From a virus (lineage: Duplodnaviria > Caudoviricetes), in IMG/VR virus record IMGVR_UViG_3300033148_005588, positions 18,833 to 82,832 of that record: a stretch of 64,000 nt of DNA; one strand, given 5' to 3'. Positions 8,353 through 37,081 of this stretch are shown in pieces. The position numbers and the translations under genes were made by a program. Each line of letters starts with the position of its first letter. Position 1 is the stretch's first letter. The notes beneath the pieces were generated by a model. That model was not told where the DNA came from. It searched no databases and saw only the letters and a list, made by a program, of their open reading frames with translations.

Positions 8353-8354
8353 GG

Positions 8355-9773: not shown

Positions 9774-9821
9774 ATCTCAAAACTCCTCCTTCTTATGTAG
9801 ATTTTGGTTAAATCTCTTCTC

Positions 9822-10419: not shown

Positions 10420-10423
10420 TTCG

Positions 10424-10987: not shown

Positions 10988-10988
10988 T

Positions 10989-11366: not shown

Positions 11367-11377
11367 TTTATATCCTC

Positions 11378-19003: not shown

Positions 19004-19413
19004 TAGTCCGCAATCCTCCCCACAACCTTCAGAACTACCTCTTGGACACGATGCCCAGAGGATTCAAACCAATCCCTTTGCAAAGATGACCGGAACTTAA
19101 CGACATAAGTATGACCGTCAATGTGGTCCCATTTGAAACTTTTCGCTTGGGCGTTGGCCTTTGAAGAATCCAAGTAGAAATCCATTATTGTCCCTGCGTC
19201 AGCTTTTGAAATGCCCTTACTCCATCTTAGCCTTATGTAGAAAATAGGATCATCACTAAGGGCAACAACCCTATCTGCTCCGTCGTCAAAGTAATGAACT
19301 TCTTGTTTCTTAGCAGCCACCTCTGTGAGAACTTCTTGTGGAGCAACAGCCAGCGTTCCAGAATAGTCTGGAGTTACTGTTGTTAGATAATCATACAGTT
19401 CTTTCTCTGCCAT
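19003..19413 (-). CDS. Distal/minor tail protein
   Basis: Between tape measure and tail tip; FKWDHIDGHTYVVKF pattern. Confidence 0.65.
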   Translation of the reverse strand: MAEKELYDYLTTVTPDYSGTLAVAPQEVLTEVAAKKQEVHYFDDGADRVVALSDDPIFYIRLRWSKGISKADAGTIMDFYLDSSKANAQAKSFKWDHIDGHTYVVKFRSSLQRDWFESSGHRVQEVVLKVVGRIAD

Positions 19414-19434
19414 AGGGAAACCTCACTCTTTTCT

Positions 19435-22400
19435 CTAAAGCCCTGCTATTTTTTGAATGCTCCTCACATATTGAGGATTGGTCTTTGCTAAATCCACAAG
19501 CACTTTACTCATAGTGTGCCCATCAACAGTCAAGTAAATTGGTTGTAAGACAGAGGCCCCCTCTCCTCCTCCTACTCTGTTTGGCAGAGCGCCTGTAGCA
19601 TTCATCTCCTCCAGCGCATCATACCCTATTCTTCTGGCAGCATCTTCCCGGATCACATACTCATACGGCCTCACCCTCATGAGCAAGTCTGCGGCCAACC
19701 CGCCCGCATGCGCTTGAGGAATTCCTAGTCTGCTTCCGATCTGCCCCAAAGCTTTGCCGCCCGACATACCAGCAAGCAGAAGCTTAAAGTTGCGTAGTAT
19801 GGTGGAGATGTTCTCGCTCACATAGTCAAATAAAGTGAACTCTCGCAAAAACCCCATCCCTGACGCACCTAGCTTCTTCACAGCATCCCAAACGCCTTTG
19901 GGTAACTTGGTAACGCCTGCCCACAGACTTTGTGTCATACCAGGCAAGTTAAGCTCTTTCACATCATTCCAGCCATGGGTAGCCAACTCTTTTATCTTGT
20001 CTATGGTGGCTGCTGGCAAACTAACCAACTTGCTAAAAGCATCTTGTCCTAACTGCTTCGCCAAGCCAAAGGCCGCTTCCAAAGAAGAACTAGGCAACTG
20101 AGCAATTACATCTCCTACTGGGCCTGAGAGAATGGCTGTTTTGGTGCCTTCAAGAGCTGTCAAAGCTGCCTTATCAACTACCGTATACCGACCGCCAATC
20201 TTCACTACTGCCTTTTCTGCTCCTCCGAGCATTCTGCCCAAACCGGCAGTAGCTCCTCCAATAGCGCCGCCTGTTAGTGCTCCTGTTAGTATGTCTCCTA
20301 AGTCTCCGCCCCTTATAACGCTTGTTGCAGCTCCTGTTGCAGCCCCAGTCAAAATGGCAGGCACAAGAGTGCCTCCGCTCAACACAGCAGCAGCGGCAAG
20401 TCCTGCTCCAGTTAGCACTTTGCCGATAGTGGTGTCACCAACCCAACTAGAGAACTTGCTCAACACTTTGCCCACTACACCAGCAACTCCTTTTACAATC
20501 TTAACAGGAATGCTGATTATGCTCTTGATTATGTTTCCTATGAAGCTGAAAAAACCGTAGTGTGGCAAGCCTGGCTCTACAAGCCCTCCATAAGCAAGCC
20601 CCCTTTGCCCTGTTTGGGCGGGTATGTTCTTGCCTACTGCAACTTGCCCTGCTGGTCCTGTAACGGCCTCTAAAAAGCCTCGCATTTCTGGCAGTTGTGC
20701 CACTTCTCTTGGCACAACCCATTCCCCAGGAGTCAGCATTGCCATCACTGTGTCTCCGGCAAATCCGCTTCTGCCATTCCACAAGCCAGGCACCTCGCCA
20801 CCCCTGGCAAATGTTAAGAAGGGAACATCTATTCCCAGCAGTTTCTCTATGGTGCCCTGGCCACCAGGCGCCCCAGCCCATGCGCTGCGAAAGTACATTA
20901 TAATTTTCTCGGCTGCTATGTCTGCCACCAAACGCATAAATGAATCTCGTAGATTAATCGCAAAGCTCTCCCACAGCTCGCCCAGATCGCTGATTTGTCC
21001 CTTCATCGCCAGGAAGAAAGTATCTGAAAAGGCCCTTCTCAAGTCTTTGGCTGTTTTCTCCCCAAAATCTGCTATCAACTGGGTTCTGTGCCGGAAGCTG
21101 AGAAAAGCCTTTTCCCAACCAAGCATAAACGAATTCGCCACATCCAGTTCTACTTTCTCCAGCCTTCTGAGGGCTTCTGCTATCTCGTCTGCTGTAGAGT
21201 TCACATTCTTGATTATGTCAAGATTTGCCTTAACATAGTGAACTTTCATCGCATCAGTAGCTTCTATATTCTTACTCTTCAAAGTGTCCCAAGCTGTGTT
21301 AAGTTCCTTGGTTGTATACTTACCAGACTTAAGAACAGCATCAAGAGCCTTTTGAACTCTCTTAGCAGCTGCCTCTTGTTTGCCAACCCCGACAGCCTTA
21401 TCCATCTGCCTCCAAAACTCTGCCCATGCTCCCTTCTTGGCATACTTCTCTTGCTCCTCCAAAGCATCAATCAAGTTCTCGTAATACTCCTCGCTTTTCT
21501 TGCCCATAGCCAAAGCAGCATCGTGCTGGCCAAAGAGAACTTTAAGAATCTCTTTTCTAGCTTCTTTCTCTTTCTCTGTTAGGCTGTATTGCTTGCTTAT
21601 TATATCCAGTAATCCCTCTTGTTTCTTGGCAGTCTTTTCGATACCTTTCTGGGCTTCACTAGATTGGGCAACAGCCAGCTTCTCAATAGCCTTCTTGTTT
21701 CTCTCTGATAGCCTGCGCAAAAGAGCATCTTGGGCAGCAGCACGCCTCTCTGGTGCTTTGTCTATCTGTGTCCAAAGACGCATCACCTCTTCATCAACAT
21801 TACCAAGAGCGTCAGCGTACTCTACCATAACCCGCGCCAGTTCAGTACGGGCTGCCATAGCCCCACGAGCACTAGGCCCCTCAATTTTTATCTCTCCCTC
21901 TGGTACAAGCCTCTTAATAAAAGGCACTTTTCTCATTACATTTGCTATGCCATTAATCCACTTTTCAACTTGTTTGGATAGAGCCTCCATCCCCTCGTAG
22001 AAGGCTAGTTTGATTGCTGGCCAAATAGCCAAAGCATGATACTTTATTGTGAGCCAAGCTTTCTCATAAGTGGCCACTATGGATAGAACATACTTCTTCA
22101 CCTCATCAAAAGTCTCAAAGTAATACTCAAAGGTTCTGCCAACTCCATACATTAGCACTCCGACAATGCCCGCCTTGGCTATGGGAGAAGCCATCAAACC
22201 AGCTATTGCCACATCGATCCTGGCTATGGCAGCAGCCAGTACATTTGCCCCGACAGATGCTTGTGTCAGGGCTGTAGCCATTGTAGCAAAGAGCGCTGCC
22301 GCTTTGTATGCTAAAATAGCCTTGAGGGGCTCGGTGATCAGCCATAAATTATCGCTCAAGAACTTGGCAACCTTGTAAGCTTTCTCTATTGCGCTGGCTA

Positions 22401-23541
22401 GTCCTCTAAAGAACCCAACAACTTTGTCCTCTTTTGCTACTAGTGATGTAGTGATGTCTTCCAAAATTCTCCCAAGAACTGGAAGCACTTCCAGCCCTGC
22501 CTTCATGAATGTGTTCTTAACAGCATTCCAGAATTTCTCGCTAACTCCCTCAAAAGACTTCAAATACCTCTGCCAAGCTTTCTCAAGGCCACCAGCAGCA
22601 CCACCCATCTCTTCTATCAACCCTATTACTCGTCCAAAGTGCTCTACCATCAGGCCGGAAAACGCTATTAGGGCTTCCTTTCTGCCTCCCAGCAATTCGG
22701 CCAGAGCCTCTGTGCTACCTTGGGTAGCTTCATCTATCTTGCGCAGCGTCTCAACAAACCCTATCTTCTGTATTGCTTGTTGAACTCCACCGTAGTCTTT
22801 CATCAAGGCAACCATCTTGTCTGTGGGCTTTATGAGAGATGTTATGAGGGCTTCTAATTGAGTTGTTGCCTCGGCAGTAGAACCAGCCGTTTGGGTGAGC
22901 AAAGCCAACGCACCACCCATTTCTCTTGTGTTCAAGCCAGCAGCACGAGACAAATTAGCAAGGCTACCAATAATAGGCACCAGCTCTTGGAAAGTTGTCT
23001 GGCCAATGCGCTCAATTCTGAACAGAAGGTCTGCTGCCTCTGTTGCGTTTTTAACTTCCCCAGCATAACCAGCCATTAACTTGGTCAGCGCCCTCACGGT
23101 GTCGCTCTGCTGGACATGGGCGGCACGAGCAGCTTTAGAGGCCACTACCAGCAGATCCAACGCTTTCTTAGGCTTAGTAACACCAGCACTGATCACTTGG
23201 TAGTAGCCCTTTGTCAACTCTGTCACATCGCCCAGAGAGGGGCCAATTGACTCCACCTGCTTCCGTATGGTCTTTGTAGTCTGCTCTGTGACTTTCCCCA
23301 TATCAACAATAGCACTTTCGTAGTTCTTTGCGTAGTTAATAATCTGGCGGAAAGACATAGAAGCAGCAAAGCCAATTATGGCTCCTTGCAAGCCTGTAGC
23401 AGCTCTCACAGCAGAGCCAAAGCTTCTAGTCACATTTGTGGTGAAGCTTCTGACTCGCCTCTCTGCCATATCAAGCTGAGAATAATCAGCTCCTATTGTC
23501 GCATAAATGGAGCCTAAGTTCCCACCGCCGCCACCAAACAC
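19435..23541 (-). CDS. Tail tape measure protein (1368 aa)
   Basis: Ala/Gly/Lys-rich helical sequence, TP901-type core, GDTV.AMLTPGEWVV motif; position. Confidence 0.95.
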   Translation of the reverse strand: MFGGGGGNLGSIYATIGADYSQLDMAERRVRSFTTNVTRSFGSAVRAATGLQGAIIGFAASMSFRQIINYAKNYESAIVDMGKVTEQTTKTIRKQVESIGPSLGDVTELTKGYYQVISAGVTKPKKALDLLVVASKAARAAHVQQSDTVRALTKLMAGYAGEVKNATEAADLLFRIERIGQTTFQELVPIIGSLANLSRAAGLNTREMGGALALLTQTAGSTAEATTQLEALITSLIKPTDKMVALMKDYGGVQQAIQKIGFVETLRKIDEATQGSTEALAELLGGRKEALIAFSGLMVEHFGRVIGLIEEMGGAAGGLEKAWQRYLKSFEGVSEKFWNAVKNTFMKAGLEVLPVLGRILEDITTSLVAKEDKVVGFFRGLASAIEKAYKVAKFLSDNLWLITEPLKAILAYKAAALFATMATALTQASVGANVLAAAIARIDVAIAGLMASPIAKAGIVGVLMYGVGRTFEYYFETFDEVKKYVLSIVATYEKAWLTIKYHALAIWPAIKLAFYEGMEALSKQVEKWINGIANVMRKVPFIKRLVPEGEIKIEGPSARGAMAARTELARVMVEYADALGNVDEEVMRLWTQIDKAPERRAAAQDALLRRLSERNKKAIEKLAVAQSSEAQKGIEKTAKKQEGLLDIISKQYSLTEKEKEARKEILKVLFGQHDAALAMGKKSEEYYENLIDALEEQEKYAKKGAWAEFWRQMDKAVGVGKQEAAAKRVQKALDAVLKSGKYTTKELNTAWDTLKSKNIEATDAMKVHYVKANLDIIKNVNSTADEIAEALRRLEKVELDVANSFMLGWEKAFLSFRHRTQLIADFGEKTAKDLRRAFSDTFFLAMKGQISDLGELWESFAINLRDSFMRLVADIAAEKIIMYFRSAWAGAPGGQGTIEKLLGIDVPFLTFARGGEVPGLWNGRSGFAGDTVMAMLTPGEWVVPREVAQLPEMRGFLEAVTGPAGQVAVGKNIPAQTGQRGLAYGGLVEPGLPHYGFFSFIGNIIKSIISIPVKIVKGVAGVVGKVLSKFSSWVGDTTIGKVLTGAGLAAAAVLSGGTLVPAILTGAATGAATSVIRGGDLGDILTGALTGGAIGGATAGLGRMLGGAEKAVVKIGGRYTVVDKAALTALEGTKTAILSGPVGDVIAQLPSSSLEAAFGLAKQLGQDAFSKLVSLPAATIDKIKELATHGWNDVKELNLPGMTQSLWAGVTKLPKGVWDAVKKLGASGMGFLREFTLFDYVSENISTILRNFKLLLAGMSGGKALGQIGSRLGIPQAHAGGLAADLLMRVRPYEYVIREDAARRIGYDALEEMNATGALPNRVGGGEGASVLQPIYLTVDGHTMSKVLVDLAKTNPQYVRSIQKIAGL

Positions 23542-26007: not shown

Positions 26008-26382
26008 CTACAAATCCAAGTCTATAGCGTTAAACTCCGCACGCTTCTTACCAGCACTGCGCAATCGGCCTGTTGTATCAAGAGCACAAGCCATCTGTCC
26101 ATAAGGCGTCATCATCAGATTGCTTGCTCCATCAACAGTGCCCAACCAGTATTCCACTTTGGTGCCTTCTGTGGTCTCTGCCCGGACAACAGGATCTCGT
26201 ATGGCAACAAAATGCGCTGCCAACCAACGCTCTATCTCCTTCAGCTGATCTGTGGATAGGGAACTGTCCTCGCTCAAAAGCTTATTAACAAGCAGATTGG
26301 CGACTGTGATAAACGGAGTTAAATCCGAAACATCAGTGTCTATTATTGCGGACACTTCCGCAGCAGTTACTCTTGTCGACAT
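26008..26382 (-). CDS. Head-tail adaptor/connector
   Basis: IERWLAAHF...TPYGQ.A..LD motif. Confidence 0.8.
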   Translation of the reverse strand: MSTRVTAAEVSAIIDTDVSDLTPFITVANLLVNKLLSEDSSLSTDQLKEIERWLAAHFVAIRDPVVRAETTEGTKVEYWLGTVDGASNLMMTPYGQMACALDTTGRLRSAGKKRAEFNAIDLDL

Positions 26383-26431: not shown

Positions 26432-27166
26432 CTACCTCTTAACAGCTTCATTGCTCCTGCTCCTTAGCCATAAAGATGGCGTAATGAACTTGGCGACTTC
26501 ATCTGCCTTCCACTCTAAGCCCAAGTCATTTACCACCATCTGTAGCTCTATCAAGTCTCCGTTGATGGCCCTTTGGGGCCACACTTCATAGATTTTAAGC
26601 TTGGCATCAGCCATCTCCTCAAAACGTTTCTCGTGCTCTGCTACCCACCGCAGCCATCCCGATCGGCTTCTGTAGCCTCTCATGAAGGCTGTTTTAAAAC
26701 AAGAGCGTACAATGTCCTCAGGGTGCCTGCGCACAATAATCCACTGTGCCTCTGGGAAAGCCTCTGCCCATAGGGGCCAAAAGAGGCATATCTTTGCTCC
26801 CTTGTAGAACCAAGGTCCCTCCTGGTAGCCTTGCTTAGCCACTGCGGAGAAAATCTCCTCCCGCCACACCTCGGCCAACTGCCCCAAAGTGTAGGGCTTT
26901 TCCTTGTGCACAAGCAAGGGTTCTTCCTTAGCCTTATGGAACACCACAATATCAGGCAGAGGATTCTGACCCATAGGGTCAAAGCCCATCTCTTTCAAGA
27001 AAGGCTTCACTAAATTTCGTACAATCTCTTTGTTCTCAAACATTCCCTTCTGGTTAAACCTGTTTGGGCCTCTCATCTCACCGCCCCAAGCTCCGCAGAT
27101 ATGAAGCGTACCAGCAACAAGAGAAGTCCCAGACCTAGCTGCTCCTGTCACAAGAATTGGATCCAT
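26432..27166 (-). CDS. Sulfotransferase-family protein
   Basis: ILVTGAARSGTS 5'-PSB loop; IIVRRHPEDIVRS 3'-PB motif. Confidence 0.8.
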   Translation of the reverse strand: MDPILVTGAARSGTSLVAGTLHICGAWGGEMRGPNRFNQKGMFENKEIVRNLVKPFLKEMGFDPMGQNPLPDIVVFHKAKEEPLLVHKEKPYTLGQLAEVWREEIFSAVAKQGYQEGPWFYKGAKICLFWPLWAEAFPEAQWIIVRRHPEDIVRSCFKTAFMRGYRSRSGWLRWVAEHEKRFEEMADAKLKIYEVWPQRAINGDLIELQMVVNDLGLEWKADEVAKFITPSLWLRSRSNEAVKR

Positions 27167-27168
27167 GG

Positions 27169-27531
27169 TTAGGCTCCTCCTCCTTCTTCTTCAAATTCTT
27201 CATATTTACTCACAGTCCACAGATAACCGCCCCTCCTATGGACAAGAATTAAGTCTTCCCCAAACAAGGACTCGAAATATCGTCTTATAAAATCTGTAGG
27301 TGCAACACAAACGATTATTGGCACCACCCCCGCTTTGTGTATTGCTCTGGCGTAAGTGGCTAAAGTCACCAAGTGTCTATGGATGCCTTCCTGTGTAAAG
27401 TTATAGTTCCCTGTCTCCTGCCTCAAATAGTGGCTGTCCAGGATAACTGATGGCTGATTCAACTTGGATTGTATCTCAGCCGCCATCTTTGTTTTGCCTG
27501 TACCAGGTTTACCGATAATCAAGCATACCAC
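27169..27531 (-). CDS. APS-kinase-like P-loop kinase (short)
   Basis: GKPGTGKT, LDSHYLR, NFTQEG, A....G...II..VAP. Confidence 0.65.
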   Translation of the reverse strand: MVCLIIGKPGTGKTKMAAEIQSKLNQPSVILDSHYLRQETGNYNFTQEGIHRHLVTLATYARAIHKAGVVPIIVCVAPTDFIRRYFESLFGEDLILVHRRGGYLWTVSKYEEFEEEGGGA

Positions 27532-27967
27532 GGCTTTGCCACCTCTCTGGTTCTACAACTTTTACCATTTCTCCCAAGTCCAAACTCTCTTTCCCAAGCC
27601 ACCTTTTCAAGTACACAGCTGTGGACTCTCTGTCCAACAGAGTCAAAGAGTAATCAATTGTGGCAACCTTCACGCCTGCCTCTCGCAAGGCAGCCTTTGT
27701 CTCATCTACAGCATCCAGCAAACGACCCCTTCTCACCTTCCTTAATCCGTAGTGCGGTAAGGCGCCAAACGTCTCCTTCAATATGTCTTCCAAGTATCTC
27801 TCCGCTACAATTACTGCCACTTGCTGAGGAGGATGCTTGATTGCCTCTCTTACAGCCTTTCTCAGGGGGAGCTCCTCTACTAGCCCATCATATCCACCAT
27901 TCTTCAGCATACGGACGACTAGAGACTTACCTGCTTTCTTCAAACCTGTAACAATAATGTGCTTCAC
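27509..27967 (-). CDS. Degenerate sulfotransferase-like protein
   Basis: IVTGLKKAGKSLVVRML..GG N-terminus and EMVKVVEP C-terminus resemble small phage sulfotransferases. Confidence 0.5.
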   Translation of the reverse strand: MKHIIVTGLKKAGKSLVVRMLKNGGYDGLVEELPLRKAVREAIKHPPQQVAVIVAERYLEDILKETFGALPHYGLRKVRRGRLLDAVDETKAALREAGVKVATIDYSLTLLDRESTAVYLKRWLGKESLDLGEMVKVVEPERWQSRGMLDYR

Positions 27968-28365
27968 GTCAGCATCTCCTCCCTCTCTGTGTCTTCCTTA
28001 CGTCGTATGATAAAGTTCGCTTCACACCATCCCGGATGAAAGGGATACCTTGAATCTCCCTCAAAATCATTATGGGTGATGTAGAGAAATGTACAGCTAG
28101 TGATCTTCTTTACCATTGCCCGCAGGGACTCATAAGGCGTAGTGGCAGCAACAACTACCAAGTATCCCTTTGCCTCTATCTTTCTTGCCAGTAGGGCAAG
28201 CTGCTCATAGTCCCCCTTCTCATAATCGCACTCGTCTGTTCGCTCCAACCCAGGCAAAAACTGCTTCATCCAATCTGAGTCCAAGAACACAGTATTCTTG
28301 CCCAAGAGCTTTTTAGCTTGTGTTGTCTTGCCCGATCGCCTCTGCCCAAACACCCAAAAGATCAT
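27964..28365 (-). CDS. APS-kinase-like P-loop kinase (short)
   Basis: GQRRSGKTT, LDSD, KGYLVVVAATTPYESLR. Confidence 0.65.
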   Translation of the reverse strand: MIFWVFGQRRSGKTTQAKKLLGKNTVFLDSDWMKQFLPGLERTDECDYEKGDYEQLALLARKIEAKGYLVVVAATTPYESLRAMVKKITSCTFLYITHNDFEGDSRYPFHPGWCEANFIIRRKEDTEREEMLT

Positions 28366-28592
28366 TCTTTCTCCTCCTCCTCTTCTTCTTTCTTCTTTAT
28401 GCCTGTGAGTGTTGCAGTGAAGCGCAGCCTGCCCTCGTTCACATAAGACACCCGATAAACCGCTCTGCCAAGAATGACTGGTGCGCCAACCTTTGGCAAC
28501 AAAGTCTGCTTCTTCTTGTTAGGCAACTTCTCAATCTTTGGCATAAGACTTGCCTCATCATCTTCTTTATGCCACCTTTGAGCCTTCAACAC
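28362..28592 (-). CDS. Hypothetical protein
   Basis: ORF within the island. Confidence 0.5.
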   Translation of the reverse strand: MLKAQRWHKEDDEASLMPKIEKLPNKKKQTLLPKVGAPVILGRAVYRVSYVNEGRLRFTATLTGIKKKEEEEEEKE

Positions 28593-29343
28593 CCTTCCTC
28601 CATTTGCTTAAGAAATAACGCTCATTCCGCTTGAGCAGCATTTTGTACTTGCTCCGCTCTATGATAAGACTGAGCTTTGGATGCTCTTGGTGGAGCACCA
28701 CCAAATCATCCCTGTACACAAAAGGTATGCCAGCATCCATTACTTTCTCCCTGAAATCATCATCATCATACGCTACACCATGAGCATATTCCTCATCAAA
28801 CCCCTCAATACCCTGGTAGTTGTCCCTGCTAATGGCAGAACAAAAGTGGTATCCTACGTTGCGCCTTTTGCTATGCTGATACCAGCGCAAGAGCTTATAC
28901 TCAAAACTCTCAGGGGCATAAAAGATTCTTCTAGGCCGGATATGTTTACAAGCACAAACAACATACAGAGAGGAGCTTCTGCTGAACTCTTGATCCAACC
29001 CTGCCAATATGTCAGTAGTGTGGATACACTCCGGACTAGTCAAGATAAAGTAATCTCCCCTAGCAGCGTCTGCTGCCTGGTTAAAGAGAGGAGCAGGATT
29101 GTATGTGTCTTTCTCAGCCTCAGGCACAGTGATCAACATATAGGACACATAGCTTGCTATGACCTTGTTGAAAGCTGCATGGAACTTAGCATCTTTAACA
29201 TTCTTAGCATCCTCTACAATGACCACTTCCCAATCCTTTCTACTACTGTAGAAGTGCCGAAATGAGGCCAAGGTATTGGCCAGCTGTGGGGCTCGGTTCC
29301 AATATGGCATCAGTATGCTGTATTTAATCCCCAACAATCCCAA
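28567..29343 (-). CDS. GT2/GT7-like glycosyltransferase
   Basis: SILMPYWNR, VIVED, GFDEEYAHGVAYDDDDF, HQEH. Confidence 0.85.
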   Translation of the reverse strand: MGLLGIKYSILMPYWNRAPQLANTLASFRHFYSSRKDWEVVIVEDAKNVKDAKFHAAFNKVIASYVSYMLITVPEAEKDTYNPAPLFNQAADAARGDYFILTSPECIHTTDILAGLDQEFSRSSSLYVVCACKHIRPRRIFYAPESFEYKLLRWYQHSKRRNVGYHFCSAISRDNYQGIEGFDEEYAHGVAYDDDDFREKVMDAGIPFVYRDDLVVLHQEHPKLSLIIERSKYKMLLKRNERYFLSKWRKGVEGSKVA

Positions 29344-30202
29344 GCATCCTCCTCAGCAAGACAGACGTTTTGGCTTTATCTTGTATGTTTCTCTCAGTCA
29401 CCGTATACTCCATTTGGCTGCTAGCTTTATGGCCTGCGTACCAATGAAGACCAATTGTCTCTGGCGGCAAAGACAAAGGCTGCTGCCTGTAGTACCGATG
29501 AGCATTTCTCACAGGGTACACAACCTCAGAAGGCAAGAGAGACACTACTGGATCATCAGACGCCGAGGACAACTTTTCCGATAGCATTTGCTCCAGCAGA
29601 AACCGCCCAAAGGTCTGATACCCTCTGATAGACTTAGGATCATACTTCAAGAGCTTCTTGCCTCGCTCGAAAACCTCTTCATAGAAGCTTTGTCCTGCGC
29701 CTTCTCCAGCTCCAAGAAATCCTATTGGGTAAACAAGCCTTCTGTCTTTTTTGTAGGTACAAAAGAAAAGGTCTGCCTCTGTGGCAAGCAGCGGCATCAG
29801 CTCACTCATAGGTTTTATGTACACAATATCAAAATCACTCCACACACCAGCAAAGGTAGAAAACAAGTACCAGCGCAGCAAATCAGACTTGTGCACCTCT
29901 GCTACCCTCTTTCTTATGCCAAGAGAGTAAAAGCTCACTTCTACCAGCTCAACTCTCTCCAGCGTCTGGAGCTTGCTGAAATAGTTTGAGTAGTTCCTAG
30001 GCACCCGACAACCCACTTGCTCTTTGGTGCTCCAAGTTTCTCCTCTCCCCTTGTCCCGGGAGTAGTATATGTGAACTTCCCAGTCAGGATTCAGACTAAC
30101 AAAGCTCTTCACAGTCAAATACCGCATAAGGGACAGCGGCCTATTGCGGCCCCAATACAAAAACAGCCTCTTAGGAATCTTCTCACAGGCCCACCTACTC
30201 AT
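29324..30202 (-). CDS. DXD glycosyltransferase (GT32-like)
   Basis: IPKRLFLYWG, SDLLRWY, GVWSDFDIVY, GLHWYAG. Confidence 0.8.
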   Translation of the reverse strand: MSRWACEKIPKRLFLYWGRNRPLSLMRYLTVKSFVSLNPDWEVHIYYSRDKGRGETWSTKEQVGCRVPRNYSNYFSKLQTLERVELVEVSFYSLGIRKRVAEVHKSDLLRWYLFSTFAGVWSDFDIVYIKPMSELMPLLATEADLFFCTYKKDRRLVYPIGFLGAGEGAGQSFYEEVFERGKKLLKYDPKSIRGYQTFGRFLLEQMLSEKLSSASDDPVVSLLPSEVVYPVRNAHRYYRQQPLSLPPETIGLHWYAGHKASSQMEYTVTERNIQDKAKTSVLLRRMLGIVGD

Positions 30203-30753
30203 CTCTTCTTACCTCTCTCCATAATGTATGTTCCTACCAAAACAGAACCTGCTCTGTTCCACCCTTGGTGAAGGCGCTTGAATCCTAAAGCAACCAACTC
30301 CCTATGTGTCCATTGATATCTATGGGTCTCATAAGGGTTTCCATAGACGCTTCCATCTTGCTCACAAGGCGTAATAGGAATTGTTAGAAAGACAGCTTCC
30401 AACTTGCTGCCTTTCTGCCCTAATAGTTCTTTCAGCTTAAAGACAAGCACAGTAGCGTCTTCATAAGGCAAGTGCTCCAACACATCTCCAAGGATTATAA
30501 TGTGATAATTGCCAAAGCGATCAAATTCTCTTATGTCCATTGCATAAACCACATCATAAACCTCTCTAAGTTTGTATTTGTTAATGTATGGCTTCCAAAT
30601 TTCCACTCCATCTATTTTAGCAACATTCCCACAAAGCAGCCTTCCCCACTTTCCTGCTCCAGCACCAATATCCAAAATGGCTCTCTTGGGATTAGCCAAA
30701 ATGCTCTGGAGCATAATCTTTTCACCTTCCCTTGGTTGCTCGGACATAGGCAT
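30199..30753 (-). CDS. Class I SAM-dependent methyltransferase
   Basis: ILDIGAGAGKWG, GDVLEHL. Confidence 0.85.
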   Translation of the reverse strand: MPMSEQPREGEKIMLQSILANPKRAILDIGAGAGKWGRLLCGNVAKIDGVEIWKPYINKYKLREVYDVVYAMDIREFDRFGNYHIIILGDVLEHLPYEDATVLVFKLKELLGQKGSKLEAVFLTIPITPCEQDGSVYGNPYETHRYQWTHRELVALGFKRLHQGWNRAGSVLVGTYIMERGKKR

Positions 30754-30760
30754 CTGTGCT

Positions 30761-31045
30761 TTACTCCTCTGGCAAATTGTAAGTTCTTACCTCAGCAGTC
30801 GCCCCTAAGCTGCCTCTCTCTATGGCTTCAGCCAAGCGCCTATTGATCTCATCTCTCAAGCGTACTCGTTGTTCTCCGGCCTTCCGTGCCTTAAACTCTA
30901 AGAGAGAAATCTTTTTATGGTTTGGATTTGGCTTCCTTCTCTCTGCCAATATTGCCATGTTACTATCGTAGCACTTTATGTTCTCTATCGAGAGCTTGTC
31001 TATTAGCTCTCCTATAGAACAAATGAAATCGTAAGCCTCCCTCAT
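30761..31045 (-). CDS. Small helical protein (SIGELIDKLSIENIK motif, DUF4254-like)
   Basis: Motif common in polysaccharide/GT clusters. Confidence 0.55.
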   Translation of the reverse strand: MREAYDFICSIGELIDKLSIENIKCYDSNMAILAERRKPNPNHKKISLLEFKARKAGEQRVRLRDEINRRLAEAIERGSLGATAEVRTYNLPEE

Positions 31046-31047
31046 AC

Positions 31048-31845
31048 CTATTCCTTTCGCATGTGACCAAATTCTTTTGTCCGTTTAAAGTGCCTCCGCT
31101 CTCCTGCCTCTTGGTGATACACAATGGAAGACCTGCTCATCACAAACCTAGCTCCGGCCTCGTGGCAACGCTGAAAAAATCTCACATCAGGTGCTCTAGG
31201 TCTATCTTCCGCTAATTCCAACTCCCAAGGCCCATACAACTCCCACCACTTCTTATTAAATACATAAGGAAAACCAAGGGCACTGCGCCAGCTTCCTCGC
31301 TCTTCTTCTGTCTCTAAACGATTAGCATAGAGTCGCCTATAAAGAAGCAGAAATTGCTCCTCATCAAACTCTCCTTCTCTTACAGCTCCCAAATCAGCTG
31401 TTATGACGCAGTTACTTCTTATTGGGCTTAAGAGCATGGAACTAACAATAATATTCTCATCAATGTACTTGAGCAAATTAGCTAACCAGTTTCTACCAAA
31501 GTAAACATCAGAATTGACAAGGCAAGCATACTCATTCAATTCAAAACAACAATCTAAAGCCTCATTAATCATAGCTCTTATATTCGGTATGTATCCTATG
31601 TTGCTGTCTTCTGTATAAGTTAAGTGATGTAGATGGCAGAAGCTCTTTAAACGATCAAGGTACTCCAATAGACGATCTGGTGCTTTCCATGTCACAACTA
31701 CATAATCAATATTCTCAGTAGGGACACCTGCATTCTCAAACAAAGATGTAGTGCTGTAGCGAAACATCTCATAGTCCAGTGAGATCATATTGCCTACTGA
31801 GATGCGTCTTTCAGTACGCTTCTTATCAGACTCGTTATGGTGCAT
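31048..31845 (-). CDS. GT2-like glycosyltransferase
   Basis: VNSDVYFGRNWL, PDVRFFQR, IVYHQ. Confidence 0.7.
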   Translation of the reverse strand: MHHNESDKKRTERRISVGNMISLDYEMFRYSTTSLFENAGVPTENIDYVVVTWKAPDRLLEYLDRLKSFCHLHHLTYTEDSNIGYIPNIRAMINEALDCCFELNEYACLVNSDVYFGRNWLANLLKYIDENIIVSSMLLSPIRSNCVITADLGAVREGEFDEEQFLLLYRRLYANRLETEEERGSWRSALGFPYVFNKKWWELYGPWELELAEDRPRAPDVRFFQRCHEAGARFVMSRSSIVYHQEAGERRHFKRTKEFGHMRKE

Positions 31846-32621
31846 CGGTTTCTCTTATCCCAATAGTTTGATCTGGTAATTCTATTGTTGAAATCTTGAT
31901 TGTTGCCCGCATACCAATGAACACCAATTGTTTCCTCTGGCAACTTAACTCTTCTGTGAAACAAAAGTCTTCTGTATCTCTTTTGCGCTTGTGTGTCGGC
32001 AAAAGGAAAAACAATCTTAGGGTCTAACCACTTCACCTTCTTCAACCTAAGTAACAACCACACCTTATCCGGAGAAAACAAAGGAGCTCCTAAGCATTCA
32101 TAGGTTCCAGTAGTGGCAGCAAGTGCCTCTTTATACATATCAAGAAAAAACTCATCTCCTCCCTCTTTTGCTCGCATAAACGAAACAGTAACGTAACCAG
32201 GCAATGGGTACTGCCTGAAACGAATCAACTCTACATTAGCCTCTGTCTCTGGCAAAGGCCGAAAATACAGTATGTCTGTGTCGCTCACTGTGCCTCCATG
32301 AAAAGCCAATATATACCAAGAAAGCAAATCGCTCGTGTAGATGTCGTTATATCTCAACTCTGCTACCTCTTTGCAAAAGTCTTCCAGATAGACAATCTGT
32401 ATCAAACCCTGATCCTTCAACCTGAAAACATTAGGAAGATAATCAGGCCCTTTATAAGTGCTGAAGTCCTGCTTGACTTCCCACTCACTTACCAAGGGCT
32501 GCTCTCTTAGAACTTCTCTGCGTAGTACAAGAGATACTTGCTCGTTGTATTTACAAGCAGAGTACAAACTCATGTATCTAAGAAAGCTCAGCTTTTGTCC
32601 TCCCCAATAGAAATAAATCAT
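31794..32621 (-). CDS. DXD glycosyltransferase (GT32-like), paralog of 29324-30202
   Basis: IYFYWG, SDLLSWY, GGTVSDTDILY, GVHWYAG. Confidence 0.8.
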   Translation of the reverse strand: MIYFYWGGQKLSFLRYMSLYSACKYNEQVSLVLRREVLREQPLVSEWEVKQDFSTYKGPDYLPNVFRLKDQGLIQIVYLEDFCKEVAELRYNDIYTSDLLSWYILAFHGGTVSDTDILYFRPLPETEANVELIRFRQYPLPGYVTVSFMRAKEGGDEFFLDMYKEALAATTGTYECLGAPLFSPDKVWLLLRLKKVKWLDPKIVFPFADTQAQKRYRRLLFHRRVKLPEETIGVHWYAGNNQDFNNRITRSNYWDKRNRCTITSLIRSVLKDASQ

Positions 32622-33583
32622 ACATGATCCCTATGATCCAATTCTTTTCTCAACCCATCCAAGAAGTTATTGTAATCAGTATAATAACAGTATCTACACT
32701 TGCTACCATCAAAAGGCTCCTGATTGATCCAGTGCTTTATGTGAAGGTTCATCCTTGCTTCCAGGCTATAATCTTTAACAGAACTAAGCCCAGCATATTG
32801 TATTCCACAACAAGGATAAAGAAAACCATCAGCCGCAACAACAGGCTTTAACAAAGAAATCCAGCAACGCTTTGTTCCTGGTCTGGGAGTCTTTCTATTC
32901 TGAAATAGAACAATCGGGTCTTTAGGCTCTTCTACTATAGGCACGTTCTCTATATCAAGTAAATTACTCACCACCCTAACATGAGTAAAATTATATTCTT
33001 TTGCCTTCTGGACGTACTTCTTGAGATTCTCTGGCTTATGGTCTCTTTTAACAACATAAGAAAAAGCCCAATCTACACCAGGAGCCTGCTTAATGGCCCT
33101 CTCCACCTTGCTCCACCAGCTATCGCTAAACTCTACTTCATCAGAGCACGAAATTCTACACCACAAGACATTTGCCCAATCCAGTGCTCTCAAACGATCT
33201 ATTACATCCCCGTTGGTCACCAGTCCTATGCTTATGCCCATCTCCGATAGACTATAGATAATATCAGCAATGCTAGGGTGCAAAAGTGGTTCTCCTCCTC
33301 CAGTAATAGTCACTGACCGACAGCCTAGCTTTTTAAACTCCTGCATAATTCTCAAGATTGCCTTAAAGGGCAGCTCCAAACTCTTATCTCTATCAGAGCA
33401 AGAGCAAAAGCGGCATTGCCTGGTGCATTTATTAGTAGGACACAGTTGCACATGAACAGGTGGTATGAACTGTTTCTCCACAATGCTTTCAATGGTGCGG
33501 TAGTCTTGAGCCAGCTTCAAAGGGAATTGATCTGCTGCAGTGTAAGAATGTAATTTTTTCATCGCCAATACTCCTTTACCCAC
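32618..33583 (-). CDS. Radical SAM protein with SPASM/twitch domain
   Basis: CTRQCRFC (CX3CX2C), TGGGEP, C-terminal C...ADG..YPCC...CRYC. Confidence 0.9.
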   Translation of the reverse strand: MGKGVLAMKKLHSYTAADQFPLKLAQDYRTIESIVEKQFIPPVHVQLCPTNKCTRQCRFCSCSDRDKSLELPFKAILRIMQEFKKLGCRSVTITGGGEPLLHPSIADIIYSLSEMGISIGLVTNGDVIDRLRALDWANVLWCRISCSDEVEFSDSWWSKVERAIKQAPGVDWAFSYVVKRDHKPENLKKYVQKAKEYNFTHVRVVSNLLDIENVPIVEEPKDPIVLFQNRKTPRPGTKRCWISLLKPVVAADGFLYPCCGIQYAGLSSVKDYSLEARMNLHIKHWINQEPFDGSKCRYCYYTDYNNFLDGLRKELDHRDHV

Positions 33584-34194
33584 CCATCATCAACTTCATG
33601 GGGTAGTGGGCTTCCATGAAAGCAAACTATTGTGGCGTCGTCCGGGAGGCCTTCTCCTCTGCAATGGCGTTTATAGCTATAAACGTTAATAAGGCTCTGG
33701 ATTGGCTTCATGGGAATCCTTAACCTCTTTGCCATATGGGCAATGTATTTTTGATCCCAAGAGAACAAGTCTATATGCTTTTCACGAAACCCGGATTGGA
33801 TAGCTTTCAAAGAACCCATCCATGCCATAACACCACTAGCCCATCCAGCACGTCTAAAAGGTTTAAGCATATACAGCACCTGTCCGTCTGACTCTTGGAC
33901 TTCTTCTGCTATAGGAGTAATGTCGTTGACGATGATGGTGTCGAGATCAAAATAAATGCAAGGCCCCTCATAAGAGAAAACATCCACTTTGCCCCACCAC
34001 TTTGGTTTATCACAAGGCACACAAGAGATTCCTGCTATCTGCTTATCAGTGAGACAAATAAACTCATGTTCCCAAAGCAAGTGTTGCTTGACCATATTTC
34101 TCAAACGATAAACATAGTCAGCGTTGTATTTCTCACCTACTTTAACACAAAGAACCTTGACTCTCACAGAGTGCCTCACAACAGACTGCTCCAA
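33559..34194 (-). CDS. GT-A glycosyltransferase (GT8-like)
   Basis: KYNADYV.RL, WWGK, YFDLDTII, WDQ, VCFHG.P.PH. Confidence 0.85.
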   Translation of the reverse strand: MEQSVVRHSVRVKVLCVKVGEKYNADYVYRLRNMVKQHLLWEHEFICLTDKQIAGISCVPCDKPKWWGKVDVFSYEGPCIYFDLDTIIVNDITPIAEEVQESDGQVLYMLKPFRRAGWASGVMAWMGSLKAIQSGFREKHIDLFSWDQKYIAHMAKRLRIPMKPIQSLINVYSYKRHCRGEGLPDDATIVCFHGSPLPHEVDDGWVKEYWR

Positions 34195-34412
34195 TACTTA
34201 TCCTCCGGTTCTGGCTGTTCAGTAACAAACCCTATTTTTGAAACTGTGTTAGTATCAAAACGCAAAAACCCTCTGTCAGCGCTTATATTCTCACTCTGCT
34301 CTTGTCCTTCTACTAAAGAGTTAAGCACCAGTTCAACTCTCTTAAGCACACAAGAGACATCTTTCAATAGTTGTACCTGTTCCTGTTTGCTAATCACCAT
34401 TGTCTCCTCCAA
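34176..34412 (-). CDS. Hypothetical protein
   Basis: ORF within the island. Confidence 0.5.
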   Translation of the reverse strand: MEETMVISKQEQVQLLKDVSCVLKRVELVLNSLVEGQEQSENISADRGFLRFDTNTVSKIGFVTEQPEPEDKYWSSLL

Positions 34413-35082
34413 TTTTCTCTTCTTTGGTTAAGTATTCTTCCAAGGTCATTATAGGAAATTGGTCAATAGCGCTTCCGGGTGTACAATTGACTATCTCCAA
34501 ACCCAACCCCTCTGCCTCCTTGGCTATACGAGGGTAGTGCTGGAGAAATCTGGCATAAGGGTTTTTGTCAGGAGAGGGATGGTCATTGTGCCAATTGGTC
34601 TTCCCGTCCACTCTTCTCATATCAAACCCCAAGAGCACTACCCTCCTGGCTCCCAGGTGATAGGCAAAATTGATTGCGCTTGAGCCGCTACAACCATTCC
34701 ACGCTACATAGGTGGGCCTAGCTTCAATGCCTGCTGGCTTGCCTCTCTTGTATCCTACCATCGCGGTTTTATTCAAGAACTTTGGGACACAATGGGCAAT
34801 AATACCAGGGTACTCTCGTAGTCCCAGGTGGATGTGCTGCTCAAACCACTTACTATCTCCAAACCAGCATGCATCAACCCAGCTTCTAGGCTCATACCGG
34901 CAAGCTTTGCCTTCTGAGCCAGCACCAAGCACAGGGTCTCCGTAGGCGTTGTTTATGCCTATGATGCGCCTATTCCGTATCAGGCTCAGGTCTACTTGGT
35001 TTAACCCTGGCCCTCCGCCTAGAAGGAACACCACTGCTCCTTTCCACAGTTGAGGTAGTGGGGGCTGTGTCGTCATCTTCAT
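34390..35082 (-). CDS. DUF115/MAF-like (sialyltransferase-fold) putative glycosyltransferase
   Basis: LLGGGPGL, IGINNAY, SGSSAINFAYHLGARRVVLLGFDM, NWH. Confidence 0.7.
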   Translation of the reverse strand: MKMTTQPPLPQLWKGAVVFLLGGGPGLNQVDLSLIRNRRIIGINNAYGDPVLGAGSEGKACRYEPRSWVDACWFGDSKWFEQHIHLGLREYPGIIAHCVPKFLNKTAMVGYKRGKPAGIEARPTYVAWNGCSGSSAINFAYHLGARRVVLLGFDMRRVDGKTNWHNDHPSPDKNPYARFLQHYPRIAKEAEGLGLEIVNCTPGSAIDQFPIMTLEEYLTKEEKIGGDNGD

Positions 35083-35473
35083 CCTCTTGTTCCTCTTCCT
35101 CTTCTGTGGTAGTAGCCTCTGGCAAATCAACCTCTCCTCTCACAAGAGCCTCAGCTTCCACCTTGTTCAAGTAGCCTTCATTGATCTGCTCTCCGGTTTC
35201 TTTGTTAATCACAACATACCGTCCAGCGCCTCGATGAATCATCTTGAGACTGATCTTTGGCTCAAACGCCGTCTCCGGTTCCTCAATAGCTTGAGCTTCC
35301 TCGGGATTAACAGGCTCCATTATGTCCAAGAAAGCCTTGACTCTGCTGGGCTGGGCATAGAAAGTGTCCCCAGCCCGCAAAGTCTTTCGCTTTCCTGTCT
35401 CTGGATCACGCATGTTAAACTTCCCACTAATCATCCTGTAAAGAATCTTCTCTTCTCCTCCAGCCATAGTCAT
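34970..35473 (-). CDS. Acidic protein following the capsid gene
   Basis: ORF directly after MCP; E/D-rich tail overlapping the next gene. Confidence 0.6.
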   Translation of the reverse strand: MTMAGGEEKILYRMISGKFNMRDPETGKRKTLRAGDTFYAQPSRVKAFLDIMEPVNPEEAQAIEEPETAFEPKISLKMIHRGAGRYVVINKETGEQINEGYLNKVEAEALVRGEVDLPEATTTEEEEEQEDEDDDTAPTTSTVERSSGVPSRRRARVKPSRPEPDTE

Positions 35474-35547: not shown

Positions 35548-36549
35548 TTAGCTGTAGTGGACAATACCACAACGACCACTTTGGTCATGTCTGGTCTGTG
35601 GTACCTGAATGACCATCACCTTGAAGTTGATCTTCATTCCTCCCTCACTATCCCACTGGACTGTGGTGATAGGCAAGCCATTCACCAAGCGAATAACGTC
35701 ACTGGTCATTTGAACCAGCAAAACATTATCGTCGGTAAGCTTGTCAGCCACCTTGACATCCTGGATGTTAGAAATCCGCAGGATACGCTCTCTGATAGTG
35801 ACATCGGAGTTGGCTTTAAAGTCATCATCCAACGTAGCCTCATAGTTCGTAGGTACATAAAGTACATACGGCCCATAGGCTCTATCACTAATAGCAGCCT
35901 GCTTCATTGCGATAACATCCCCAAGGATGTCGCTGCCATCTTGGGCACTTTCATCCCAGTTTCCGGTCAGCGAGCCAGTATTCCGATTTGGCTCATCTGT
36001 ATACCCGTAAATGGTACCACCACCAAAGGTGTATGTACTTGCTCCAGTAAAGAGAATTTCCTCTACCTTCTCAGCAACTTTACGGGCAGCCAGCTCTGCC
36101 ATTGTAGTATCCAACGGCATATTGCCGCTGCGTGAGGCTTCAATTTCCCTTATAGAGAAAGAGAAGTCTTTGTGGATAATTGGCAAGGGCAGATAGCTGA
36201 TGTCAAACTCAGGTCTATCCCTGCGTCCTTTAACCACACCATCCATATTCATCTCGGCATCCTCAATGTCGCTAGCATCCTGGTATCCTAGCACGGTCTT
36301 CCCTAAACCATTAGGAATGTCATAGGTCAGACCACGAGCTTCCAGGTCAGCCACACCAACAAGCCTCTCTTGGTAGGCTTTGAGAACAGCCTTATCAATA
36401 GCCTTCCATTCATCATAGAGCAAGACATCATTTGTCCTGAGAGCATTTACATTCAACTCGTTCTGAAGCAGCTTCTGAGCAACATTACCAAATGCCTTGC
36501 CTTTACCAAAGTTAACGAAATCAATGTTCGCTTCACCTTTGTGCTTCAT
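35548..36549 (-). CDS. Major capsid protein (HK97 fold, encapsulin/linocin-like family)
   Basis: 333 aa; RLVGVADL..RGL, PLPIIHKDF....RE..ASR, P..R.DQSGRCGIVHYS; position. Confidence 0.85.
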   Translation of the reverse strand: MKHKGEANIDFVNFGKGKAFGNVAQKLLQNELNVNALRTNDVLLYDEWKAIDKAVLKAYQERLVGVADLEARGLTYDIPNGLGKTVLGYQDASDIEDAEMNMDGVVKGRRDRPEFDISYLPLPIIHKDFSFSIREIEASRSGNMPLDTTMAELAARKVAEKVEEILFTGASTYTFGGGTIYGYTDEPNRNTGSLTGNWDESAQDGSDILGDVIAMKQAAISDRAYGPYVLYVPTNYEATLDDDFKANSDVTIRERILRISNIQDVKVADKLTDDNVLLVQMTSDVIRLVNGLPITTVQWDSEGGMKINFKVMVIQVPQTRHDQSGRCGIVHYS

Positions 36550-36610: not shown

Positions 36611-37081
36611 CTACACAGCCACCGCCTTAATAAGCGCAGCCCCTTGTCCAGAGCTAGAAGCATTCAGAGCCTCAAGCGCTTGGGCCACTATGCGGTTTGT
36701 GTACTCTGTTCCAGTGTACGCTGAGCTTTCCACCGGAGCGGTGTGTTTTTGAAAGTAGCCATTCCCTTTGGATTCCAGAAAGTCTCCAAAAGAGATGTTC
36801 TCTCCATCAGCTACATAAGCTAGAAATTCATCACCAGGACGCAGATGCACAAACTGGCACCTGTCTCCAGCAGAGTAGCTGTCTCCAATTTCCTGGCCCT
36901 CAAGAGAGTTCTCAATAGCAACCATGGCGGTTGCGTTCCCCCCTTGAGTGCTGTGAGGTTGGATTGTGTCATCATCTGTCACATACTCCACAAGCATACC
37001 AGGATAAATGGTTTTCCCGGTGTTAACTTCTGCTTCTTTCTGCAGCGGATCACCTTTCAACACTATTGTTTTGTAGCTCAT
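36611..37081 (-). CDS. Capsid decoration/cement protein
   Basis: IYPGMLVE...VA.EN..EG..I.D.Y..GD; between scaffold and MCP. Confidence 0.7.
   Translation of the reverse strand: MSYKTIVLKGDPLQKEAEVNTGKTIYPGMLVEYVTDDDTIQPHSTQGGNATAMVAIENSLEGQEIGDSYSAGDRCQFVHLRPGDEFLAYVADGENISFGDFLESKGNGYFQKHTAPVESSAYTGTEYTNRIVAQALEALNASSSGQGAALIKAVAV

Follow-up and report, generated by a model that had tools for sequence, protein, structure and literature searches.

We analysed a 64,000-nucleotide window of a Caudoviricetes genome (bases 18833-82832 of IMG/VR record IMGVR_UViG_3300033148_005588, an 82,832-bp virus with direct terminal repeats that is rated complete). Here, 15 open reading frames (ORFs) between the major capsid gene and a head-tail adaptor gene encode glycosyltransferases (GTs), a radical S-adenosylmethionine (SAM) enzyme, a methyltransferase, adenosine 5'-phosphosulfate (APS) kinase-like proteins and a sulfotransferase. 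We propose that this island specifies a late, wholly cytoplasmic pathway by which a virion protein acquires a short methylated, sulfated glycan during head assembly, a reading to which we give a probability of roughly 0.55. The acceptor would most likely be the major capsid protein or the head decoration protein. In our best reading, a virion-protein acceptor is backed by the fixed position of the island beside the capsid gene, by its hypervariable content and by the recurrence of a Maf-like gene paired with a sulfotransferase gene in an unrelated head module. It is further backed by the modeled Maf fold and by the nearest relatives of the GT8-like enzyme, which include protein glycosylators. 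Family calls were made by Pfam, PHROG and NCBIfam scans and by profile searches of solved structures; fold evidence came from two AlphaFold models with fold searches and, for other island proteins, from Atlas neighbors.

The Maf-like enzyme and the sulfotransferase

The first enzyme of the cassette matches phrog_4603, which carries the label 'alpha-2,3-sialyltransferase', at 4e-32 and has 529 homologues, many with the Maf domain PF01973. In its AlphaFold2 model, which has a predicted local distance difference test score (pLDDT) of 93.6, the closest solved fold is Maf from Magnetospirillum (5mu5), with a Z of 13.8 and a root mean square deviation of 4.0 over 191 residues, covering chain residues 257-514. 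The next neighbors in the exhaustive structural search are Cst-I, a sialyltransferase from Campylobacter (Z 10.3), and MptE, an archaeal pyrophosphokinase (Z 9.8), and Foldseek ranks CstII at the top. A GGG motif, a G-x-D motif and H165 are invariant in the family. With 230 residues as against ~630 in Maf, the phage protein consists of the catalytic core only, the flanking N- and C-terminal domains being missing. We propose that the protein may act as the initiating glycosyltransferase. A partial match to PmgO/PmgP of phage P1 is weak (38% of the query, E 2e-4) and serves as a lead only.

The last gene of the cassette encodes a sulfotransferase that exceeds its Pfam threshold (2.8e-8, 34.7 bits versus a cut-off of 27). 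Residues T7, G8, R11, S12, G13, S15, E44, R147 and S155 are invariant among 34 members of the family; we take T7-S15 to be the 5'-phosphosulfate loop (5'-PSB) and R147 and S155 to be the 3'-phosphate pair (3'-PB). The AlphaFold2 model (pLDDT 91.2) matches more than 10 sulfotransferase structures at Z 10-15, with a Foldseek probability of 1.00, and protein-tyrosine sulfotransferases (TPSTs) come first by both methods. TPST1, TPST2 and a tick TPST align over ~200 residues at Z 14.8-15.2, as against Z 10-12.5 for sulfotransferases of other kinds. Sequence identity to the TPSTs is 16-19%, with profile E-values of 0.28-0.74. The protein has no PHROG match, and we found no tblastn match to it among 50,697 cultured phage records.

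The capsid-adaptor slot in related and unrelated phages

The nearest cultured relatives of the phage are the Brevundimonas phages StAshley and MaInes, the capsid protein of StAshley being 43% identical. Synteny in related phages had been put forward as a check on the island, and it proved informative: in StAshley and MaInes the capsid gene is followed directly by small head-tail genes and the slot is empty, whereas in uncultured relatives it is filled with variable cassettes of sugar enzymes. Among 30 IMG/VR relatives gathered through the capsid protein, these cassettes range from ~1.6 to >9 kb. Of the related loci whose sequence extends 2.4 kb or more past the capsid gene, 23 have the Maf-like gene; the 5 without it are the most distant ones. 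Because these five cassette-free loci also have the most distant capsids, any difference in Ser/Thr or acidic-Tyr sites between cassette-free and cassette-bearing capsid proteins would be confounded by phylogeny. The smallest cassettes consist of the Maf-like gene alone, or of Maf-like, GT8-like and sulfotransferase genes.

The island in the window is a mosaic of two blocks. One is common to relatives L004 and L006, at 30-75% identity and in the same order: Maf-like, GT8-like, radical SAM, GT32-like, GT2-like, 94-residue protein, methyltransferase and GT2. The other is a kinase-sulfotransferase block resembling those of L003 and L005. The cassettes of relatives also hold methyltransferases (the commonest family), GT2, GT-D, GT1/4 and GT9 enzymes, short-chain dehydrogenases, hexapeptide acetyltransferases, epimerases, a PseB-like dehydratase, a transketolase and two enzymes of the Sulfotransfer_2 family, a family of carbohydrate sulfotransferases. 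Judged by sequence, this content is a sugar-building vocabulary.

Relatives of the sulfotransferase are encoded on at least 561 IMG/VR contigs, and we counted gene neighborhoods in the best 80 of these loci. An adaptor homologue is present in all 78 loci that have a downstream flank and is the direct downstream neighbor in 60 of 77. Of the 42 loci with at least 5 kb upstream, 35 have a Maf-like gene. Directly upstream of the sulfotransferase, the commonest neighbor is the GT8-like gene (31/77), with the Maf-like gene in that position in 4; a kinase-like gene is found in about one-tenth of the loci. The gene neighborhoods thus appear to point to a sugar as the sulfate acceptor, which is the option that we favor.

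On a contig binned as a deltaproteobacterial metagenome-assembled genome (MAG), radical SAM, methyltransferase, GT32-like, GT2, GT8-like, kinase-like and sulfotransferase genes follow one another consecutively. The capsid, cassette and neck genes of the clade are carried by L040, L041, L039 and L042, from MAG bins assigned to Bathyarchaeia, Syntrophobacteraceae, Deltaproteobacteria and Gammaproteobacteria. These four are probably viral contigs mis-binned into MAGs, and the MAG labels therefore give no host. Besides its main cassette behind the capsid gene, L006 has a second Maf-like and sulfotransferase pair between the adaptor and the next neck gene (18288-19696; contig shared with L095). In some relatives, the GT8-like domain lies within multidomain proteins of 562-831 residues and the Maf-like domain, too, is longer, at 345 residues (L013:12181-14676, L014:12334-14772, L003:9031-10719 and L016:4967-6004), so that domain fusion appears to be common in these cassettes.

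The pairing recurs outside this clade. In a scan of one genome per species, the sulfotransferase was found in two cultured alphaproteobacteria, and strong matches occurred in 3 of 401 sampled genomes of the alphaproteobacterial class. Euryhalocaulis caribicus JL2009 (L043, NZ_ASJA01000008.1) carries it in a prophage-like head module at 3003-12837, in the order terminase, portal, MuF, 96-residue ORF, Maf-like, sulfotransferase, protease, decoration-like protein, capsid and neck. The capsid family of this prophage (phrog_264) differs from that of the window. Microbaculum marinum has a 62% identical sulfotransferase, with a weak Maf-like match ~0.5 kb away.

The Maf-like gene is found in 69 cultured phage records, including those of Caulobacter, Brevundimonas and Xanthomonas jumbo phages and of Pseudomonas phage D3 with its relatives, where it sits between the capsid and adaptor genes. 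In the D3 region 3828-4552 (L038, NC_002484.2), the Maf-like ORF spans 3956-4552 with a GTG start and encodes 198 residues that retain the G-x-D and H-x-D-H-P motifs. The RefSeq annotation of D3 orf7 begins at 4094, so that the nucleotide-binding N terminus is missed. D3 orf6.5 overlaps the Maf-like ORF by ~166 nt, a layout similar to that of the small post-capsid ORF in the window.

Kinase-like proteins, remaining enzymes and island layout

Two short P-loop proteins precede the sulfotransferase. The original prediction listed two APS-kinase-like genes, and both exceed the Pfam cut-off (Table 1), each with the first two thirds of the domain only. The alignment to PF01583 (152 positions) covers positions 4-106 in the 120-residue protein and 4-102 in the 133-residue protein. 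Since the profile match ends at 102-106 of 152, the lid and the last third of the domain are missing from both proteins. The best solved matches of the 133-residue protein are the APS kinases 2yvu and 7yq0, and the 120-residue protein matches 2yvu at 1.4e-4 and 8a8h at 5e-3. Both keep a G-x-x-G-x-G-K-T loop. The longer protein has a Walker A motif, D-S-D and T-P-Y..R; at the D-G-D motif it reads D-S-D and the shorter one D-S-H, and a homologue in L005 keeps L-D-G-D. The two proteins are 24% identical (E 1e-6).

This short form is a populated family, with 727 cluster representatives at E <=1e-10 in an exhaustive profile search; the top matches are mostly of 110-160 residues. A word-indexed search with the 133-residue protein returned the self match alone, its relatives surfacing in the exhaustive search. 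In proteins P0301 and P0337, the short kinase-like domain is fused to a sulfotransferase domain, and these fusions therefore tie it functionally to sulfation. Fusion of the same domain to a cytidylyltransferase-like (PF01467) domain is seen in metagenomic proteins P0245, P0266, P0327 and P0370, which might be compact two-step activating enzymes.

Between the two kinase-like genes lies a 152-residue P-loop ORF. Its language-model (Atlas) neighbors are short viral Sulfotransfer_3 clusters (score 0.93), and in hhalign the alignment with the sulfotransferase family is confined to 20 residues of the P-loop. Given that limited alignment, we do not call it a sulfotransferase.

The remaining families named in the original prediction (one Maf-like, one GT8-like, a GT32-like pair, a GT2-like pair, a radical SAM enzyme and a methyltransferase) were borne out, as was one sulfotransferase, by Pfam, PHROG or fold evidence; the second sulfotransferase is weak. 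The GT8-like protein has no Pfam GT8 match. Its family profile matches, among solved structures, the Skp1 galactosyltransferase AgtA (6mw5; 6.7e-5), glycogenin (1.3e-3) and the GT8 enzyme 5gvv (2e-3), and D85 of its D-x-D motif is invariant in the family. AgtA, which acts on Skp1, and glycogenin both glycosylate proteins in the cytoplasm. The 275- and 292-residue GT32-like proteins are full-length paralogues (E 6e-18), and homologues of the former in L004 and L006 are 39% identical. The Atlas model of the 265-residue GT2-like protein falls among GT2 clusters at TM 0.72-0.78, and at 0.98 by features. Homologues of the 258-residue GT2 protein in L004 and L006 are 45% identical.

In the radical SAM enzyme, C53, C57 and C60 of the CX3CX2C motif are kept in 6/6 homologues, as are C240, C258, C259, C296 and C299 in the C-terminal region; solved enzymes match the core of the protein only. 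The SPASM label given to it earlier is consistent with these five C-terminal cysteines, which are the basis for the assignment, no SPASM model having matched there. We propose from sequence that they may form an auxiliary Fe-S motif of the SPASM/twitch type. The conserved 94-residue protein always adjoins the methyltransferase and is 75% and 74% identical in L004 and L006. The 78- and 76-residue ORFs have no family match and no tblastn match in the relatives.

The setting of the island was correctly described as lying inside the late head operon, between the capsid region and the head-tail adaptor, according to the ORF coordinates and the Pfam and PHROG matches of the border genes. In order of transcription, the portal gene is followed by genes for a 742-residue head protein, an 822-residue protein (phrog_760), the head decoration protein and the capsid protein, the last matching DUF6260 (6.1e-29), Linocin_M18 (1.6e-15), phrog_771 and phrog_264. 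Past the adaptor come neck and tail genes, including the tape measure (19435-23541) and a 2541-residue fiber, and the remaining genome encodes replication functions (5'-3' exonuclease, RecA-like, gp32-like, ThyX and AAA ATPase).

All 15 ORFs (26432-35082) lie on the minus strand from the capsid gene to the adaptor gene. The tight coupling claimed previously holds, with a count of 15 rather than 14 because different small ORFs are included. Junctions are mostly overlaps or gaps of 2-7 nt, and the largest gap, of 74 nt, follows the capsid gene. A scan against shuffled sequence found no strong promoter or terminator splitting the island: promoter-like sites show no excess (15 versus 19.0 +/- 4.3), and terminator-like sites, which are weak consensus matches on both strands, are somewhat commoner (21 versus 13.4 +/- 4.0). 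The G+C content drops to 0.425-0.43 at 30-34 kb as compared with 0.47-0.55 in the flanking structural genes, which fits an exchanged cassette. No membrane helix is predicted in any island protein, the maximum over 19-residue hydrophobic segments being 1.52 against a threshold of 1.6. All island products are thus predicted to be soluble, and export-type polysaccharide machinery is therefore absent.

Table 1. Positions of the island genes, of selected genes of the late operon and of a prophage counterpart. Coordinates refer to the window unless another accession is given.
Feature	Length (residues)	Coordinates	Strand	Remarks
Large terminase		44462-46024	minus	Start of late operon
Portal		42305-43747	minus	Late operon
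Head decoration protein		36611-37081	minus	Upstream of major capsid gene
Major capsid protein, HK97 fold		35548-36549	minus	Upstream border of island; candidate acceptor
Small conserved post-capsid protein		34970-35473	minus	Overlaps Maf-like gene by 113 nt
Maf/DUF115-fold (GT42-like) transferase	230	34390-35082	minus	First enzyme of cassette
ORF	78	34176-34412	minus	Unverified
GT8-like GT-A glycosyltransferase		33559-34194	minus	phrog_1962 8.6e-23
Radical SAM enzyme		32618-33583	minus	Pfam Radical_SAM 9.2e-16, 58.9 bits (cut-off 29.5)
GT32-like DXD glycosyltransferase	275	31794-32621	minus	Gly_transf_sug E 0.014, 16.6 bits (cut-off 23)
GT2-like glycosyltransferase	265	31048-31845	minus	Pfam GT2 E 0.031
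Conserved protein	94	30761-31045	minus	Weak DUF4254 match, E 0.014
SAM-dependent methyltransferase		30199-30753	minus	Methyltransf_23 4.3e-6, at cut-off
GT32-like DXD glycosyltransferase	292	29324-30202	minus	Gly_transf_sug (PF04488) 23.1 bits (cut-off 23)
GT2 glycosyltransferase	258	28567-29343	minus	Glycos_transf_2 5.8e-9, 36.5 bits (cut-off 23.3)
ORF	76	28362-28592	minus	Unverified
Short lid-less APS-kinase-like P-loop protein	133	27964-28365	minus	APS_kinase 23.1 bits (cut-off 21.1)
P-loop protein, possible short second sulfotransferase (weak)	152	27509-27967	minus	Atlas and hhalign
Short lid-less APS-kinase-like P-loop protein	120	27169-27531	minus	APS_kinase 28.1 bits (cut-off 21.1)
3'-Phosphoadenosine 5'-phosphosulfate (PAPS)-type sulfotransferase (Sulfotransfer_3, PF13469)	244	26432-27166	minus	Last cassette gene, adjoins adaptor
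Head-tail adaptor-like protein		26008-26382	minus	Downstream border of island; phrog_37884, phrog_302 virion structural protein
Euryhalocaulis Maf-like protein	201	7402-8007 of NZ_ASJA01000008.1		phrog_4603 2.4e-32
Euryhalocaulis sulfotransferase	204	8004-8618 of NZ_ASJA01000008.1

The small post-capsid protein, which has no Pfam or PHROG match, carries an acidic, Ser/Thr-rich C-terminal tail that lies in the overlap with the Maf-like gene. Homologues of 109-204 residues occupy the position between the capsid and Maf-like genes in at least 14 loci. We considered this protein as a possible acceptor. Its family persists where the slot is otherwise empty (slots of 377-463 nt in L031 and L032), and its alignment contains no conserved Ser/Thr patch. 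Members of the family (for example, L005:11029-11385 and L034:190-549) share an N-terminal hairpin-like motif, an acidic linker and a G-G-x-Y-x-V-V-N/D core; the L003 homologue has an additional C-terminal tail resembling an HeH/SAP-type motif.

Proposed pathway, rival explanations and known systems

We infer the acceptor, the donors, the order of the steps and the activity of the lid-less kinases as follows. The Maf-fold enzyme would place the first sugar on a Ser or Thr residue of the acceptor. The donor would be host-made, because the phage has no donor synthesis genes, and could be activated with cytidine monophosphate (CMP). The GT8-like enzyme, the two GT32-like and the two GT2-like enzymes would then lengthen the chain, and the radical SAM enzyme and the methyltransferase would tailor its sugars. 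Finally, the short APS-kinase-like proteins would convert host APS to PAPS beside the sulfotransferase or sulfotransferases, which would add the sulfate. More tentatively, and with somewhat less than even confidence, we extend the proposal to a large and widespread uncultured phage clade and some alphaproteobacterial prophages: cytoplasmic O-glycosylation of the capsid would be begun by a stripped-down Maf and followed by sulfation with phage-made PAPS from lid-less mini APS kinases, giving a strain-variable, negatively charged coat of sulfated glycan.

Several observations weigh against this pathway. Nonulosonic-acid and CMP-sugar synthesis genes (CTP_transf_3) were not found in the genome, nor was ATP sulfurylase, and with these absent, APS and nucleotide sugars have to be taken as coming from the host. 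The kinase-like proteins lack the lid and C-terminal third, and the 120-residue one has lost the second Asp of D-G-D. The Maf-like protein of the window scores 13 bits against a PF01973 cut-off of 34.6, although many homologues at 40-57% identity carry the domain, and the DUF115 fold includes pyrophosphokinases, MptE as well as thiamin pyrophosphokinases (Z 6-8). GT2, GT8 and GT32 families also act on intermediates of lipopolysaccharide (LPS) and exopolysaccharide (EPS) at the cytoplasmic membrane face. The nearest folds of the sulfotransferase are those of the TPSTs, so that sulfate may be added directly to protein rather than to glycan.

We weighed four rival explanations. Late in infection, the enzymes could act on a glycan of the host envelope, with LPS, capsule or EPS intermediates as substrates at the cytoplasmic membrane face, which could keep progeny off debris or exclude other phages. 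LPS/EPS clusters typically contain GT2, GT8, GT32 and Sulfotransfer families, the GT2 protein has weak EpsD and WcaA-like matches in NCBIfam, and phage seroconversion is an established phenomenon that is also mentioned in PMC12619734. We nevertheless regard this explanation as unlikely: the island contains no membrane protein, flippase, polymerase or priming transferase, the genome looks lytic in type, with terminal repeats and replication genes, whereas seroconversion genes usually lie near integration modules, and the capsid-adjacent slot keeps its place across hundreds of phages and reappears in an unrelated head module. About as improbable is that the sulfotransferase acts directly on a virion protein by tyrosine O-sulfation, as TPST and RaxST do, with the glycosyltransferases working separately on the same or another acceptor. 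Two structural methods place the TPSTs on top, ahead of all other sulfotransferases (Z <=12.5), Sulfotransfer_3 is the Pfam family of both TPST and RaxST, and minimal modules consist of a Maf-like gene and a sulfotransferase only. The low identity and insignificant sequence E-values with TPSTs speak against it, as do the frequent position of the sulfotransferase behind a GT8-like gene, the addition of Sulfotransfer_2 enzymes to some cassettes of relatives, and the fact that no acidic tyrosine motif is linked to the sulfotransferase.

Less probable still is a role of the cassette in producing a soluble small molecule or in modifying a host or phage protein outside the virion, its place in the head operon reflecting late timing only. 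The pyrophosphokinases within the DUF115 fold would suit such a role, and a radical SAM/SPASM enzyme with neighboring small ORFs resembles peptide-maturation clusters, but the small ORFs are unconserved apart from the 94-residue one, five or six glycosyltransferases require a polymeric or protein acceptor, and the cassette is strictly co-inherited with the capsid and adaptor genes. We consider it highly improbable that the island hypermodifies the phage DNA with glycosylated, sulfated or phosphorylated bases against restriction. Pathways of thymidine hypermodification do include P-loop kinases and radical SAM enzymes. Phage GTs of LPS-like families glycosylate 5-hydroxymethylcytosine, and their clusters, which are defined by cytosine-C5 methyltransferase (C5-MT) or hydroxymethylase-type genes, can adjoin structural genes (bioRxiv 10.1101/2023.12.21.572611). 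In this genome, a C5-DNA methylase (PF00145) and a ThyA-like hydroxymethylase (PF00303) were not found in searches in which positive controls worked, ThyX, the maker of ordinary deoxythymidine monophosphate, is encoded, and the island P-loop proteins match APS kinases best. A search for Tet/JBP gave no match in the genome, and because its positive control was silent too, it carries no weight either way.

We therefore return to virion glycosylation, for which the original prediction had argued over DNA modification. The latter judgment stands, the prerequisites of known DNA-glycosylation routes being missing. The inference of a virion glycan is strengthened by the slot, the predicted solubility, the comparative data and the recurrence; nothing supports the suggestion that the glycan is branched. 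The analogy with nonulosonic-acid transfer by Maf holds for the fold (Z 13.8) and fails for phage-encoded synthesis of nonulosonic acids or CMP-sugars. Full-text literature searches returned no account of a sulfated glycan on phage virions, nor any of sulfotransferases encoded in phage head modules, in accord with the earlier statement that none has been characterized.

If the proposed pathway is correct, its product would be the first sulfated glycan on a phage virion, and the flagellin-glycosylation toolkit would have been put to a new use. On the capsids of an abundant environmental phage clade, such a glycan would change views on phage surface charge, adsorption to particles or mucus, grazing and decay in water. 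Viral 'cysC-like' genes would serve as a donor supply for sulfation and not for sulfur assimilation. It would also assign a function to phage sulfotransferases, whose function was called unclear in a paper on OM43 phages (PMC10580990). The prophage of Euryhalocaulis caribicus JL2009 and orf7 of Pseudomonas phage D3 offer cultured systems for a direct test.

Known systems share some of these features and differ in others. Unlike gtrABC-type seroconversion modules, the island has no integral membrane flippase or transferase, and unlike DNA-glycosylation clusters of the C5-MT, 5mYOX and GT type, it lies in a genome from which PF00145 and PF00303 are absent. The TPSTs (TPST1/TPST2; 5wri, 3ap3 and 8w5z) are the nearest solved folds of the sulfotransferase and belong to the same Pfam family; the island enzyme differs from them in its low identity and in gene neighborhoods that appear to favor a sugar as acceptor. 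In NodPQ with NodH (Nod factor) and RaxPQ with RaxST (tyrosine sulfation of RaxX), a sulfotransferase is likewise served by a PAPS supply of its own. The island resembles these pairs in that the sulfotransferase would have its own APS-kinase function and would thus be independent of host PAPS, although its kinases are short (120-133 residues), lid-less, duplicated and without an ATP sulfurylase partner. In D3 (orf6.5/orf7) and its relatives PAJU2 and PMG1, a Maf-like gene likewise lies between the capsid and adaptor genes with a small overlapping ORF before it; that slot holds no sulfotransferase or further GTs, and a methyltransferase gene follows two genes further on.

To our knowledge, glycosylation of the phage particle has been shown only for mycobacteriophages. 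Phages Che8, Corndog and Myrna use phage-encoded soluble glycosyltransferases on their own capsid and tail-tube proteins in the infected cell (Freeman et al. 2023, Cell Host Microbe, as summarized in PMC12619734; also PMC11256854). Those systems have actinobacterial hosts, and the parts of the two summaries on which we draw mention no Maf-fold, sulfotransferase, APS-kinase-like or radical SAM gene. The island described here is distinguished by its single fixed slot and its hypervariability. In Maf flagellin islands (5mu5), as in the proposed pathway, a DUF115-fold enzyme O-glycosylates a self-assembling surface protein in the cytoplasm, and variable sugar-tailoring genes lie beside the structural gene. 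The phage version differs in its core-only Maf-like protein, in a genome without nonulosonic-acid synthesis genes and in having a capsid protein as the would-be acceptor. The island is real and coherent, and it is best read as a cytoplasmic system of the phage that would glycosylate and sulfate a virion protein, as a variant of virion glycosylation and of the logic of flagellin glycosylation.

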